NCBI GenBank assembly: GCA_017414645.1 | Contig: JAFQLL010000017.1 | Span: 6,057 to 70,056, forward strand | DNA length: 64,000 nucleotides | Direction: 5' to 3' | Source: Clostridia bacterium | GTDB lineage: Bacteria; Bacillota; Clostridia; UMGS1883 | Part shown: one piece after another, positions 1,853-22,788 of the stretch | How the letters are laid out: each line of letters opens with the position of its first letter | Position numbering within the stretch: the first letter of the stretch is position 1 | Position numbers and translations under genes: made by a program | The notes under the pieces: generated by a model | What the model was told of the DNA's origin: nothing | Database searches by the model: none | What the model saw: the letters and a program-made list of their open reading frames with translations, nothing else

Positions 1853-3085
1853 ATGGAATTTAACAGAGTGAAGAATGCTGACGTAGAGTTATACGAGGCT
1901 ATGAGCCGCGAAATTAACCGTCAGAAGAACAAAATTGAATTAATCGCTTCCGAAAACTTTGTTTCCGAAGCTGTTATGGAGGCTATGGGCAGCCCCCTCA
2001 CAAATAAATATGCTGAAGGCTATCCCGGTAAGAGATATTACGGCGGTTGCGAATATGTTGACGAGGTTGAAACCATCGCCATTGAAAGAGCAAAGGCGCT
2101 CTTTGGTGCAGAGCATGCAAACGTTCAGCCCCACAGTGGTGCACAGGCTAACATGGCTGTGTTCTTTGCCGTTCTTAACCCCGGCGACACAGTTTTATCT
2201 ATGAGCCTTGCTCACGGCGGTCACCTTTCTCATGGTAGCCCTGTTAACATGAGCGGTAAGTACTTTAACATTGTGCCCTACGGCGTAACAGAAGAAAACC
2301 AGACAATTGACTACGAAGAAATCCGTCGTCTTGCATTGGAATGTAAGCCCAAGCTTATCTTAGCAGGTGCAAGTGCATATTCAAGAGAAATTGACTTTAA
2401 GAAGTTTAGTGAAATTGCAAAGGAAGTTGGCGCATATTTCATGGTTGACATGGCGCACATTGCAGGCTTGGTTGCTGCAGGCGTTCATCCTTCTCCCGTG
2501 CCCTATGCCGACTTTGTTACAACAACAACCCACAAAACACTCCGCGGTCCCCGTGGTGGTCTTATCCTTTGTAAGGAAGAGCATGCAAAGGCTGTTAACA
2601 AGGCAGTTTTCCCCGGCATTCAGGGTGGCCCCTTAATGCACGTTATCGCCGCAAAGGCAGTTTGCTTCAAGGAAGCTGCAAGCGACGAATTCAAGGCTTA
2701 TCAGCGCCAGATTGCTAAAAACGCAAAGGCACTCAGTGAAGCTCTTCTTGCTAAAGGCTTTGACCTTGTTTCCGGCGGCACCGACAACCACCTCATGCTT
2801 GTTGACCTTCGTCCCTTCAAGGTTACAGGTAAGGAATACGAGCACCGTCTTGACGAGGTTGGTATTACAGTTAACAAAAATGCAATTCCCTTCGACCCCG
2901 AAAAGCCCGGCGTAACAAGCGGTATCCGTGTTGGTACACCTGCTGTTACAACACGTGGTCTCAAGGAAGAAGACATGGTTGAAATTGCAGAATTAATGTA
3001 TCTCACAATTGCAGAGTTTGACACAAAGCAGGACGAAATCCGTGCAAGAGTAAAGGCTCTTTGTGACAAATATCCTTTGTATTAA
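1853..3085 (+). CDS. glyA: Serine hydroxymethyltransferase
   Basis: 410 aa; PLP-lysine motif [14 protein letters not shown]; full-length SHMT layout. Confidence 0.97.
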
Positions 3086-3117
3086 AAAGCTCTGCTTTTT
3101 AATACAGTGCAGAAGTG

Positions 3118-3284
3118 GTGAAGTTTTTGCTTATGCAAAAGTGAAGTTGTTCGTTTCACTCACAGTGAAGTTTTTATTGCATAAAAGTGAAGTTAAGTTT
3201 GAACTTCGGCGTAAGCCGAAACTTCACTCGCGAAGTGAACTTCACTATCGAAGATAACTTCGCTTGCCGACAGGCAAACTTAGT
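3118..3284 (+). repeat. GTGAAGTT/AACTTCAC 'ladder' element, copy 1 (candidate structured 3'-UTR RNA)
   Basis: Four GTGAAGTT at 3118, 3141, 3165 and 3187. Central hairpin TTCGGC-GTAA-GCCGAA. Complements AACTTCAC at 3220 and 3238, degenerate at 3256 and 3277. Small side hairpins lie between octamers. A second copy is at 21515-21683. Confidence 0.75.
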
Positions 3285-3313
3285 TGTCAGCAGAGCTGAC
3301 AGAGGTGATTTTT

Positions 3314-11073: not shown

Positions 11074-11147
11074 GCGGGTGTAGTTCATCGGTAGAATTCC
11101 AGCCTTCCAAGCTGGTTAGGTGGGTTCGACTCCCATCACCCGCTCCA
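11074..11147 (+). tRNA. tRNA-Gly(UCC)
   Basis: Cloverleaf folded by hand; anticodon loop CUUCCAA; encoded CCA. Confidence 0.9.
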
Positions 11148-11153
11148 AAATAC

Positions 11154-11230
11154 GTGCCTGTAGCTCAGCTGGATAGAGCAACTGCCTTCTAAGCAGTAGG
11201 TCCTGGGTTCGAGTCCCCGCAGGCACGCCA
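11154..11230 (+). tRNA. tRNA-Arg(UCU)
   Basis: Acceptor GTGCCTG/CAGGCAC; anticodon loop CUUCUAA; encoded CCA. Confidence 0.9.
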
Positions 11231-11267
11231 TTTTTTTATTCAGTGTCATTTCAAATGGCACTCATAT

Positions 11268-11345
<78 letters not shown>

Positions 11346-11417
11346 TTATTAAAAAAACAGGATCCGGTGATACCGGGGCTTCCGCGAACCGGTCTTGAGC
11401 GATTCGCTCTTTTATTT

Positions 11418-11493
11418 TGGACCGTAGCCAAGCGGTAAGGCACCGGACTTTGACTCCGGCATTTCGTGGGTTCAAATCCCGCCGGTCCAGCCA
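11418..11493 (+). tRNA. tRNA-Gln(UUG)
   Basis: Acceptor TGGACCG/CGGTCCA; anticodon loop CUUUGAC; encoded CCA. Confidence 0.88.
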
Positions 11494-11496
11494 CAT

Positions 11497-11572
11497 GGGA
11501 CACTAGCTCAGTCGGTAGAGCACTTGACTTTTAATCAAGTTGTCGGGGGTTCGATTCCCCCGTGTCTCACCA
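11497..11572 (+). tRNA. tRNA-Lys(UUU), integration target
   Basis: Anticodon arm CTTGA-CTTTTAA-TCAAG; T arm GGGGG-TTCGATT-CCCCC; encoded CCA. The 3' 46 nt are duplicated at 18742-18787. Confidence 0.92.
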
Positions 11573-20837: not shown

Positions 20838-21518
20838 ATGAAATATCGTTACGAAACACATTGCCACACAAAGCCCGTAAGCGCATGCGGTCATGCAACT
20901 GTACGTGAAACGTTGGAGTTTTACAAAAGCTTAGGCTATGATGGCGTTTTTATAACAAACCACTTTTTAGACGGTAACATCGGAATAGACTGGAACACAC
21001 CCGTTACAGAAAAGCTTGACTTTTATTTTTCAGACTACGAGGAAGGCGTAAAAATAGCCGAGGAAATTGGCATTAAGGTTTTCCTTGGTGTTGAAATGAG
21101 CTATGGCGGCACCGACTTTCTTGTTTTCGGGCTGGATAAAAAATGGTGGTATGACCACATTGACATTCTGCAGGAAAGGAAAAGCCGACAGCTGCCATAT
21201 TTCATGAGTGAGGGCGCTTTAGTGGTGCAGGCGCACCCCTTCCGTGAAGCAGGCTATATCGACCACATCCGCCTTTTTCCCCGTGGGGTAGAGGGTGTTG
21301 AGGTTATGAACGCCGACAGAACCGACTTTGAAAACCACATGGCAAACCTCTATGCCGAGGAATACGGCCATTTGAAAACAGCAGGCAGCGACAACCACTG
21401 GGCAAGCGGTGCAAAGCGCCTTGCAGGCTTGGAATGTGACGAAGCTGTTGACAGCGTAGAGGATTTTATAAAAAAGCTCCGCGACGGCAAAATGAGCATT
21501 TTTACAGTGGAAAGGTGA
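20838..21518 (+). CDS. PHP-domain phosphoesterase
   Basis: N-terminal ETHCHT metal motif; later HP...H and GSDNH motifs. Confidence 0.8.
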   Translation: MKYRYETHCHTKPVSACGHATVRETLEFYKSLGYDGVFITNHFLDGNIGIDWNTPVTEKLDFYFSDYEEGVKIAEEIGIKVFLGVEMSYGGTDFLVFGLDKKWWYDHIDILQERKSRQLPYFMSEGALVVQAHPFREAGYIDHIRLFPRGVEGVEVMNADRTDFENHMANLYAEEYGHLKTAGSDNHWASGAKRLAGLECDEAVDSVEDFIKKLRDGKMSIFTVER

Positions 21519-21683
21519 AGTTTTGAACCATGTTCAAAGTGAAGTTGTTTCTTACGAAACAGTGAAGTTTTACGTTTTACGTAAAGTGAAGTTAAGTTTG
21601 CACTATGCCGTAAGGCATAACTTCACTTGCAAAGCAAACTTCACTGCGAAAGCAACTTCACTTGCCTGAAAGGCAAACTTAAT
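21515..21683 (+). repeat. GTGAAGTT/AACTTCAC 'ladder' element, copy 2
   Basis: GTGAAGTT at 21515, 21539, 21562 and 21586. Central ATGCC-GTAA-GGCAT. AACTTCAC at 21619, 21637 and 21654, degenerate at 21676. Confidence 0.8.
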
Positions 21684-21689
21684 TGTATT

Positions 21690-21733
21690 AAAAAAATCAG
21701 GGTTGGGGAATTTATCCTAACCCTGATTTTTTT
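21690..21733. terminator. Bidirectional terminator
   Basis: AAAAAAATCAGGGTTGGGGAATTTATCCTAACCCTGATTTTTTT. Confidence 0.8.
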
Positions 21734-22151
21734 AATACAATGTATAAGTACCTTTAACCATAATAATTATGTCAGTATCGGCTTTAATGCCTCTGCCGTC
21801 TGAAAGGGGCACAATAAGGTTGTGGTTTGCAGGAACTGCAGAGCCGTGAGGCCAGTCGCCGCCCAGAGTTATGTCGCAAAGACCACCTTTTTCTGTTGCA
21901 ATAACAGTTGCAGTACCCATTCTGAGAATAATTTCGCAGCCTGCATCACCGATAAGCATCTGATTAGCGCTTAAGTTAACTACAGTATAGGAAGACACCT
22001 TGTTTACATAGGGAATAAGATTTGTTTCAACATAGCTCTTGGAAATGAGCGGGTCTTCGGGCGAACCGGGTTCAGCTGCAGAAACCGCAATTGCCACTAA
22101 AAAGGTGAGCGCCAGTATGATTGTAAGGGTACGGTTTGTAATTGTTTTCAT
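21732..22151 (-). CDS. Hypothetical secreted protein
   Basis: Signal peptide; 139 aa; RBS AAGGAG. Confidence 0.6.
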   Translation of the reverse strand: MKTITNRTLTIILALTFLVAIAVSAAEPGSPEDPLISKSYVETNLIPYVNKVSSYTVVNLSANQMLIGDAGCEIILRMGTATVIATEKGGLCDITLGGDWPHGSAVPANHNLIVPLSDGRGIKADTDIIIMVKGTYTLY

Positions 22152-22168: not shown

Positions 22169-22513
22169 TTAAATGAGGCCAAAGCTGATGGATAATGCAT
22201 CGTTTACCTTTATCATCTGAACCTCATCCAGTTTGCCTATTTTCTCACGAAGTCGCTTTTTGTCGATGGTGCGGACCTGCTCAAGCAGTATGACACTGTC
22301 CTTATTAAGCCCGTACCGAGCCGCGTCGATCTCAATATGTGTGGGGAGCTTAGCCTTGTTAATGCGGCTGGTAATTGCCGCGGCTATTACAGTTGGACTG
22401 TATTTATTTCCCACATCGTTCTGGACAACAAGCACCGGGCGTGTTCCGCCTTGTTCACTGCCCACAACGGGACTGAGGTCGGCATAAAAAATGTCTCCTC
22501 GCTTTACGATCAA
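22169..22513 (-). CDS. mazF: MazF/EndoA-type mRNA interferase toxin
   Basis: [30 protein letters not shown]... collinear with B. subtilis NdoA/MazF. Confidence 0.93.
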
Positions 22514-22515
22514 AA

Positions 22516-22788
22516 CTATTCACATCCCATTAAAAACTGCTCGTAGGCATCTTGTGTAGCTTGATCGGAATTGAAACATTCATTGGCTATTGAAAGGTTA
22601 ATATCTGCCATTTCAAGGTAGCCCTTTTTCAATTCGGTTTTGTTTTCAATTCTCCTTCTTTCCGCCAGATAAGCTTTAATAATGGACATAACCACTCTAC
22701 CTGCGGACATATGTAAATCCGCAGACAGCGCATCAATATCATTTGCTATATCTTCGGGAAGTGTTATGGAGATTTTTTTAGGTTCCAT
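22516..22788 (-). CDS. mazE: RHH antitoxin (EndoAI/MazE-like)
   Basis: ISITLPEDI ribbon-helix-helix N-terminus. Immediately upstream of mazF with a 2-nt gap. Confidence 0.85.

Follow-up and report, generated by a model that had tools for sequence, protein, structure and literature searches.

A two-armed, hairpin-rich repeat at gene 3' ends of gut Clostridia, one arm of which matches the orphan Gut-1 motif

The element between the PHP-domain gene and its convergent neighbour

The window analysed here is a 64,000-nucleotide stretch of contig JAFQLL010000017.1 from a Clostridia bacterium (assembly GCA_017414645.1), and it holds two copies of a repeat element. Copy 2, on which this study is centred, is a 170-base non-coding stretch built from two inverted arrays of an 8-base word with small hairpins between the words (Table 1). 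It follows a PHP-domain gene (20838-21518; Pfam PHP/PHP_C), the TGA stop of which lies inside the first octamer. The convergent gene on the other side encodes 139 amino acids (21732-22151, minus strand) and ends at a bidirectional terminator hairpin, the stem base of which (ATTGTATT / AATACAAT) reaches into its last codons and stop. An initial annotation made from the DNA sequence had reported the octamers, the shared TGA, the side hairpins, the central hairpin and a strong terminator behind copy 2. All of these are present, the terminator being the 25-bp hairpin at 21684-21737.

All gaps between octamers, except one, are hairpins. On the plus strand, the left arm contains TTGAAC-CAT-GTTCAA, GTTTC-TTAC-GAAAC and TTACG-TTT(T)-ACGTAA, with loops of the TNC type, and the right arm contains TTGC-AA(A)-GCAA, TGC-GAAA-GCA and TTGCC-TGAAA-GGCAA, with loops of the GNA/GNRA type. 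The centre motif AAGTTTGCACT repeats part of the octamer tail and adds a TTGCC box. The motif is the complement of GGCAAACTT at the element's 3' end, and the 5' half of the last hairpin has the same sequence. Folding of the 236-nt region gave -93 kcal/mol for the plus strand and -90 for the minus strand, with z-scores against shuffles of -10.8 and -11.0, respectively. The central hairpin is flanked at its 3' side by AACTTCAC on the plus strand and by AGTGCAAACTT on the minus strand. Since neither holds a U tract, it was rejected as an intrinsic terminator, the real one being the separate hairpin next to the element. Eight independent metagenome contigs carry the locus without a single base difference, and copy 2 is therefore not an assembly artefact. 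Being identical, they are uninformative on strain-level microevolution at the PHP locus.

Copy 1 has the same architecture and orientation and is 0.71 identical to copy 2. Its centre reads AAGTTTGAAC and is followed by the hairpin TCGGC-GTAA-GCCGA. The neighbouring genes, for SHMT (1853-3085) and an MgsA/RarA-type ATPase, are both on the plus strand, and the only open reading frame (ORF) spanning the copy is a 64-aa artefact. The window contains 13 exact octamers, all of them within the two copies, compared with 2.5 expected and a maximum of 7 in 100 shuffles; k-mer and one-mismatch scans found no third octamer cluster in the 64 kb. A coding or peptide repeat was rejected, as the words, spaced 22-24 and 17-18 nt apart, do not follow a three-base period. 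Promoter-like sites were found neither in nor beside either window copy.

Table 1. Features of the two window copies and of related loci (window coordinates, position 1 being the first base of the stretch)
Feature	Position	Strand	Description
Copy 1	3118..3285	+	Architecture and orientation as copy 2
Octamer GTGAAGTT, copy 1	3118, 3141, 3165, 3187	+	Exact match
Right-arm words, copy 1	3220, 3238 (AACTTCAC); 3256 (AACTTCGC); 3278 (ACTTAGTT)	+	Sequence
Gut-1 (RF01706) match, copy 1	3216..3286	-	42.2 bits, full-length model match
Hairpin GTCAGC-AGA-GCTGAC	3286..3300		Directly abuts short-arm end of copy 1
Long (left) arm, copy 2	21515..21593	+	Four GTGAAGTT, three hairpin slots of 15-16 nt
Octamer GTGAAGTT, copy 2	21515, 21539, 21562, 21586	+	Exact match
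Centre motif X, copy 2	21594..21604	+	AAGTTTGCACT; family consensus AAGTTTGCC
Central hairpin ATGCC-GTAA-GGCAT, copy 2	21605..21618	+	Sequence and fold
Short (right) arm, copy 2	21619..21683	+	Three AACTTCAC and terminal degenerate AACTTAAT
Octamer AACTTCAC, copy 2	21619, 21637, 21654	+	Exact match
Degenerate fourth right-arm octamer AACTTAAT, copy 2	21676	+	Family consensus ACTTAGTT
Gut-1 (RF01706) match, copy 2	21615..21685	-	41.3 bits, model positions 1-77
Flanking bidirectional terminator hairpin	21684..21737	both	A run, 25-bp stem, T run; directly abuts short-arm end
rlmD/RumA-type tail hairpin, right flank of element	L013, L015, L045, L081, L083, L095, L097, L115, L118, L119		Loci of the family scan

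The family and its relation to Gut-1

When one genome of each species was scanned for sets of three spaced octamers, at least 120 loci matched, and among the first 120 matches at least 65 elements showed the same long-arm/short-arm polarity. In the common layout, the long arm consists of four octamers 20-28 nt apart, followed by AAGTTTGCC and the central hairpin; the short arm consists of three AACTTCAC 16-20 nt apart, the hairpin TTGCC(C)-loop-(G)GGCAA and the end ACTTAGTT. Nearly all carriers are uncultured gut or rumen Clostridia (Oscillospiraceae, Acutalibacteraceae, Christensenellaceae, 'Ca. Scatosoma'). Several copies are found per metagenome-assembled genome (MAG), two of them here within 64 kb, and elements of the same MAG are 0.65-0.90 identical. 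The side hairpins differ between copies, as had been noted from the window, but they are not free-form and fall into recurrent sequence types common to different genomes.

The word itself differs by lineage, being GTGAAGTT, GTGATATT or GTGAAAT. The GTGATATT class, found by a metagenome scan, comprises two-armed 4+4 elements of identical layout, in which the centre ATATTCGCC pairs with GGCGAATAT and the end reads TCGCC-loop-GGCGAATATAAC. Both arms, the centre and the end change together between the word classes. Such coordinated, class-wide change fits a spread from master copies; it would be expected equally from pairing between the words and from recognition by one protein. The octamers and their 4+4 count, which the initial annotation had called invariant, are indeed kept in 42 canonical elements and in the GTGATATT class. 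Unrelated arrays that contain GTGAAGTT were also encountered. They comprise a 22-nt tandem repeat, GTGAAGTTttctaacttaacgt, in Bacteroidales MAGs (L011, L005, L022, L042, L063 and L071) and palindromic repeats of the GTGAAGTTTCTTCAC type in viral contigs (L134, L138 and L144), which may be iterons or binding sites.

Both window copies were compared permissively with all 4227 Rfam models, and the short arms matched Gut-1 (RF01706) on the minus strand. The scores are below the gathering score of 50 bits, and the copies were not recovered by a gathering-threshold scan of the window, because their word is GTGAAGTT and not GUGAAAU or GUGAUAU. Relatives with the same word exceed the threshold (57.4 bits for L055; 52 and 51 bits for L015), and short arms of the GTGATATT class reach 57-75.5 bits. 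The covariance-model alignments showed the layout of Gut-1, with three consecutive small hairpins, a repeated GUGAAAU-like word and an (A)AUGAAAUUCGCC-type start. Other Rfam families were rejected, the remaining permissive matches being spurious microRNA or small RNA (sRNA) hits on the terminator. The window copies are sub-threshold members of the Gut-1 lineage, and their right arm is the catalogued Gut-1 motif, which had gone unrecognised in the initial annotation.

The Gut-1 model covers 77 nt and one arm, and it is labelled as an sRNA gene from gut metagenomes (RF01706; Weinberg et al. 2010, PMC2864571). Several of the published seeds, viewed with their flanks, extend beyond the three modelled hairpins into a GGCGAAUAU centre and then into four AAUAUCAC words accompanied by longer hairpins (PMC2864571). 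As both these seed flanks and the GTGATATT class have the two-armed layout, the Rfam entry represents one arm of a larger element. Our literature search found no discussion of Gut-1 beyond the 2010 catalogue (PMC2864571). At four loci (L193, L196, L227 and L250), short arms that score as Gut-1 lie just downstream of tRNA (and 5S rRNA) genes and a terminator, in the same orientation.

Hairpin slots and mirror-image loops

The hairpin slots of the 42 canonical 4+4 elements were compared with shuffles. A hairpin occupies slot h1 in 79% of the elements (9% of shuffles), h3 in 76% (8%), g3 in 67% (15%), g2 in 71% (15%) and g1 in 98% (8%). Slot h2 forms one in only 38% of elements and usually holds a GTTCGCTTCGCTCACA-type sequence. 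Its pattern, (G/A)YTCRC-TNN-NYTCRYA, gives no hairpin on the plus strand and is conserved in both word classes (including window 3149-3164), and its complement holds GCGAAGC or CGAAG mini-hairpin cores. The proposal that side hairpins keep their pairing thus holds for slots with hairpins in 67-98% of elements against 8-15% of shuffles, and fails for h2. The slot of copy 1 that had been noted as not folding cleanly (3149-3164) indeed has no clean fold, but it is a recurrent slot type and no defect. The central hairpin is present in 41/42 canonical elements; its loop is variable, and GTAA, thought to be invariant from the two window copies, occurs in only 6/42.

The centre box and the 5' and 3' halves of the last hairpin co-vary (TTTGCC, TTCGCC, TTTACC, TGTGCC, ATTCGCC), the centre tracking the end in 8/11 departures from consensus. 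Because the centre and end boxes co-vary, we recognise an inverted repeat of 11-13 bp, TAAGTTTGCC(C)/(G)GGCAAACTTA, which brackets the short arm only and competes with the last hairpin for the same bases. Pairing between the arms adds ~ 30 kcal/mol over the local hairpins alone, with RNA or DNA parameters, so that any single strand with both arms would zip into a long branched hairpin. This agrees with the earlier suggestion that the octamer could be a helix-forming or protein-binding module. The ladder with all side hairpins is near, but not at, the computed optimum. Kissing between left and right loops was rejected, the loops at one rung not being complementary. Variant words are too few to speak for compensatory change between individual word pairs, and they are mostly C-to-T or A-to-G, changes that are wobble-compatible on the plus strand and also expected from transition bias.

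The loops differ systematically between the arms. On the plus strand, the left arm has 0 GNA/GNNA and 29 TNC/TNNC loops and the right arm has 23 and 0, respectively (Fisher's exact p = 3e-15), with closing pairs mostly C-G in both arms. As the loop types are mirror-imaged, each arm has C(GNA)G / C(GNNA)G hairpins on its AACTTCAC strand, and no single transcript has favourable loops in both arms. The mismatches in left-arm stems (plus strand: 13 A.C against 4 G.T) favour the minus strand for this arm. Sequences of the types C(GNA)G and GCGNNAGC form extraordinarily stable DNA mini-hairpins, the RNA versions of which are much less stable (PMC13037366; PMC3201870).

Empty and altered orthologous sites

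The spacer between the PHP gene and the 139-aa gene measures 213 nt in the window and 32-36 nt in relatives at 79% and 71% PHP identity. At these empty sites the stop codon is directly followed by the bidirectional terminator, and the stem-base extension ATTGTATT / AATACAAT is missing. A relative at 89% PHP identity has a ~ 45-nt remnant, consisting of AAGTT, a hairpin and then ATTTAGTT, and one at 87% has a one-armed GCGATATRT array with hairpins (L130:2187-2336). The SHMT-MgsA spacer measures ~ 228 nt in the window. In relatives with SHMT identities of 97, 95 and 92% it is 58-69 nt long and holds an ordinary terminator; a relative at 90% carries a one-armed GTGATATW array just past the terminator (L171:3233-3422). 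The one-armed arrays of these relatives are in sense orientation downstream of the gene. Given the empty sites in close relatives, the element is gained or lost on short time scales. The different arrays at the same loci suggest that the same spacers may have been used repeatedly by different word classes, or that elements may be replaced in place.

Genomic context and flanking hairpins

Flanking ORFs were called heuristically and homologous contexts were collapsed into 51 groups. The elements lie in convergent spacers in 18 groups, in co-directional spacers in 17 ('--' 11, '++' 6) and in divergent spacers in 2. On the short-arm side, the adjacent gene points toward the element in 35 cases against 8 (p = 4e-5); on the long-arm side, gene direction is unbiased (27 against 17). 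The initial annotation had asked whether the elements always occupy 3' untranslated regions (UTRs). A dedicated 3' UTR RNA in a fixed orientation is not supported: the co-directional spacers hold both orientations, and the orientation relative to transcription is largely mixed, a result that the annotation itself regarded as favouring a DNA repeat. A tie to the direction of replication was rejected, as the correlation with GC skew arises only via local gene orientation and the convergent contexts split 10:10.

A start within ~ 30 nt of an upstream stop codon, noted for the window copies, does apply to both of them but is no family rule; across the family, what consistently adjoins the short arm is a hairpin or the 3' end of a gene. 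A hairpin (score >= 8) starts <= 4 nt from the short-arm end in 49% of elements, compared with 6% at random positions, and a hairpin is found at the long-arm end in only 17%. Often the short-arm flank hairpin is the terminator of the gene on that side. As this terminator intervenes, the element then lies outside the transcript of that gene, as with the Gut-1 matches past tRNA genes and a terminator. The first octamer gives the upstream gene its TGA stop in copy 2 and at four other loci (UP distance -4).

About 12 loci are ordered rlmD-type methyltransferase gene, element and 23S_rRNA_IVP gene (Pfam PF05635, Avd-like), the last starting 20-40 nt past the long arm. At rlmD/RumA-type loci, the TAA stop lies inside the terminal AACTAAGTT of the element. 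The last 5-7 methyltransferase codons are the reverse complement of the gene's own conserved VE(S/T)VVC codons, so that the tail forms an abutting coding hairpin (Table 1), and they differ between orthologues in step with the VE(S/T)VVC codons. A link to diversity-generating retroelements, considered from the Avd-like IVP gene, was rejected, as no reverse transcriptase or template repeat is nearby. In copy 2, L001 and L117, too, the flank hairpin is lengthened by inverted copies of the codons that end the neighbouring gene, and beside copy 1 such copies form a palindrome at the SHMT stop. These inverted copies would fit fold-back or template-switch synthesis, either during junction formation or in a later extension of the palindrome.

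Some further observations concern the genes around the window copies. SHMT (plus strand) and the 139-aa gene (minus strand) both end in the same nine bases, TTGTATTAA (Leu-Tyr-stop; window 3074-3106 and 21681-21740), an inverted copy of which extends the hairpin at both loci; the shared ending may be due to chance or to a preferred target. The 139-aa gene is directly preceded by genes for a MazE-like antitoxin (90 aa) and a toxin of the PemK/MazF type (114 aa; 22169-22788, minus strand), and the order antitoxin, toxin and 139-aa gene is kept in relatives both with and without the element. Elsewhere in the window, five tRNA genes form a tight cluster (11074-11569, plus strand).

Interpretation of the element

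We consider it quite possible, though short of probable, that the element is primarily a REP/MITE-like DNA repeat, which would fold into a branched hairpin when single-stranded and the octamers of which would be read by a putative lineage-specific factor. We favour this reading because of the empty sites, the presence of both orientations, the depletion from divergent spacers, the donation of stop codons, the coordinated words, the adjacency to hairpins and the mirror symmetry of the loops. The element would be gained and lost at gene 3' ends, typically landing with its short arm against a terminator hairpin, and the invariant word (A)GTGAAGTT of 8-9 nt would be the recognition site of a putative lineage-specific trans factor that copies or maintains it. 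Wherever the region becomes single-stranded, be it DNA or RNA, the hairpins would form and the two arms would pair up in one long branched hairpin. Copy 2 would be transcribed as the PHP 3' UTR ahead of the terminator, and a 3'-end block or stabiliser, as with REP elements, would be a likely by-product, a role that is plausible under an RNA reading too. Mobility, the trans factor and any effect at the RNA level are inferences. A bolder form of the idea, which we find rather unlikely as a whole, is that the Gut-1 family is a previously unrecognised non-autonomous mobile DNA of gut Clostridia. Four word-pairs would make up a ladder from which C(GNA)G mini-hairpins protrude. This ladder would be recognised in single-stranded or cruciform state by a putative enzyme that reads the lineage-specific 8-nt address and integrates the element next to hairpins such as terminators, the inverted flank copy arising at the junction.

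Several observations weigh against a DNA repeat of this kind. The elements inspected adjoin housekeeping genes, and no transposase, recombinase or other cognate gene was found beside them. Target-site duplications were not detected: the longest direct flank match averages 3.28 nt, compared with 2.89 nt in permuted pairs, and there is none at the window copies. No identical sister copies occur among the within-MAG pairs, which indicates no recent burst, and exact insertion boundaries cannot be defined because the terminators at the loci turn over quickly. Of the viral contigs in IMG/VR, 34 contain the three-octamer pattern, all as one-directional arrays of other kinds, which include coding 24-nt repeats and phage GTGAAGTTTCTTCAC arrays, and none as a two-armed element; BLAST of copy 2 against plasmid and phage collections gave no match. 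A phage or plasmid origin was rejected on these searches. At the rlmD-element-IVP loci, the element must be transcribed, as it lies 20-40 nt upstream of the next start. The Rfam curators graded Gut-1 as certainly RNA on the basis of covariation. All eight words have stayed almost unchanged even in copies that are old and diverged, a sign of ongoing selection that could just as well reflect a role for the host. In RNA, GNRA tetraloops (CGTAAG, CGCAAG, CGAAAG) are classic loops as well, and since they suit RNA too, the loop evidence for DNA over RNA is suggestive, not decisive.

A functional structured RNA with only secondary spread is an explanation that we regard as unlikely but deserving serious attention. 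The element would then be a Gut-1-type sRNA or a 3' UTR/intergenic element. Either its hairpins would present single-stranded GUGAAGUU for binding by an RNA-binding protein, which would make it a sponge or a stability tag, or its two arms would form an exonuclease-blocking rod. In favour of an RNA, the Gut-1 covariance model matches the short arm with 41-42 bits here and with 51-75 bits in relatives, slot pairing is kept despite differing sequences, and the fold energies are far below those of shuffles. Copy 2 has a stop codon before it and an intrinsic terminator behind it and so is inside the PHP transcript, the one-armed arrays of relatives follow their gene in sense orientation, and the short-arm neighbour is usually a gene that points toward the element. 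The mirror-image loop bias, however, cannot serve a single RNA strand, and on a transcript with both arms the words would be paired rather than displayed. Co-directional genes enclose the element in both orientations, and copy 1 is antisense to the Gut-1 orientation though both its neighbours are on the plus strand. A terminator commonly stands between the upstream gene and the short arm, and the window copies lack promoter-like sites. In the 'non-hairpin' slots, the two-base-pair stems of the GCGAAGC type are stable in DNA but not in RNA (PMC13037366), and sites are empty in relatives as close as 97% identity. The terminators, the loops and the empty sites also count against a dedicated 3' UTR RNA.

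Recognition of the words could also take place on double-stranded DNA, the element being a binding array for a host chromosomal protein (nucleoid-organising, partition-like or topology-related), with eight sites in two inverted sets forming a symmetric complex at gene ends. The invariant words in inverted sets of four, their two classes, their lineage specificity and the position at convergent or 3' spacers agree with such a role. We nevertheless judge it improbable, as the variable word spacing (20-28 and 16-20 bp) destroys helical phasing, the hairpin spacers and the loop bias are left unexplained, and the sites are dispensable in close relatives. The words may resemble ParB-type half-sites (TTTCAC), P1 parS heptamer/hexamer boxes and Rep-binding GCTC repeats of adeno-associated virus, a likeness that was not used in the argument. 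Growth in place, without mobility machinery, by fold-back/template-switch replication at terminator inverted repeats is another candidate that we hold to be very doubtful. It would combine palindrome growth with slippage of 22-24 nt units, and it draws on the flank hairpins extended by inverted copies of neighbouring coding ends, on unit gain or loss and tandemly duplicated slots between orthologous copies (L055 against L065; L061), and on the quasi-palindromic nature of the whole element. Taken alone, it leaves unexplained the word, centre, end and 4+4 design shared across unrelated loci and genomes, and the left-arm side hairpins are not repeated in inverted form in the right arm.

Significance and comparison with known systems

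Gut-1 has stood in Rfam since 2010 as an orphan 'sRNA' from gut metagenomes and is shown here to be half of a two-armed element with at least two word classes. This reframes the target of the search, which becomes a word-binding protein and single-stranded DNA or cruciform states, and not only a transcript. Annotators of Clostridia MAGs gain a way to recognise a common intergenic repeat that rewrites the C-termini and 3' UTRs of its neighbours. Should the element have a copying enzyme of its own, abundant uncultured gut bacteria would harbour a new system of hairpin-directed DNA insertion.

Among known repeats, the REP/BIME/REPIN elements of Proteobacteria are likewise short, non-coding, multi-copy and hairpin-forming, with inverted units and lineage-specific variants. 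They share the enrichment in 3' and convergent spacers and the depletion from divergent ones (18 convergent, 17 co-directional and 2 divergent groups here), and are able to stabilise upstream mRNA when transcribed. In REP elements, however, the palindrome is conserved and the linkers vary, whereas in the present element it is the linkers of 8-9 nt that stay invariant, between variable hairpins; moreover, the carriers are Clostridia, no RAYT-like gene was seen beside the elements inspected and there is no GTAG-type 5' tetranucleotide. MITEs and transposon ends with subterminal repeats (Tn7, Mu, CACTA/En-Spm) resemble the element in having two inverted repeat sets of unequal number and spacing, no coding capacity, presence/absence at orthologous sites and insertion at gene 3' ends with new stops. 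The element differs from them in lacking target-site duplications, identical sister copies and a known cognate transposase, and its hairpin spacers are foreign to such ends. As to terminal inverted repeats of the MITE type, the arms are inverted word arrays, and the outer ends GTGAAGTT and ACTTAGTT match only partly. The abutting hairpin is reminiscent of elements that target terminators or REPs (group IIC introns, some IS110/IS3 members) rather than of classical MITEs. A CRISPR array was rejected, as the repeats measure 8-9 nt, the spacers are palindromic and 8-20 nt long, the arrays are inverted and no cas genes are nearby.

The DNA mini-hairpins d(GCGNAGC) and d(GCGNNAGC) offer a structural parallel, as most slots are C(GNA)G/C(GNNA)G on the AACTTCAC strand, including exact GCGAAGC and CCGAAGG (PMC13037366, PMC3201870). 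Single-strand initiation signals, in contrast, are single hairpins in phage or plasmid origins, not chromosomal arrays with an invariant linker (PMC13037366, PMC3201870). The closest relative is Gut-1 itself. The short arm aligns on the minus strand end to end with the 77-nt model, with three hairpins, GUGAAAU-like words and a AAUGAAAUUCGCC-type start; the gut metagenome habitat is shared, and several seeds carry the same centre and an inverted long arm. The element described here is nonetheless ~ 170 nt long and two-armed, with a second array of longer hairpins, complementarity of centre and end and an abutting flank hairpin, and the Rfam description does not include presence/absence at orthologous sites, both orientations or mirror symmetry. 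One half of the element is thus already catalogued as Gut-1; the two-armed unit, the word classes, the mirror-image loop rule, the empty sites and the behaviour of the flank hairpins are new.

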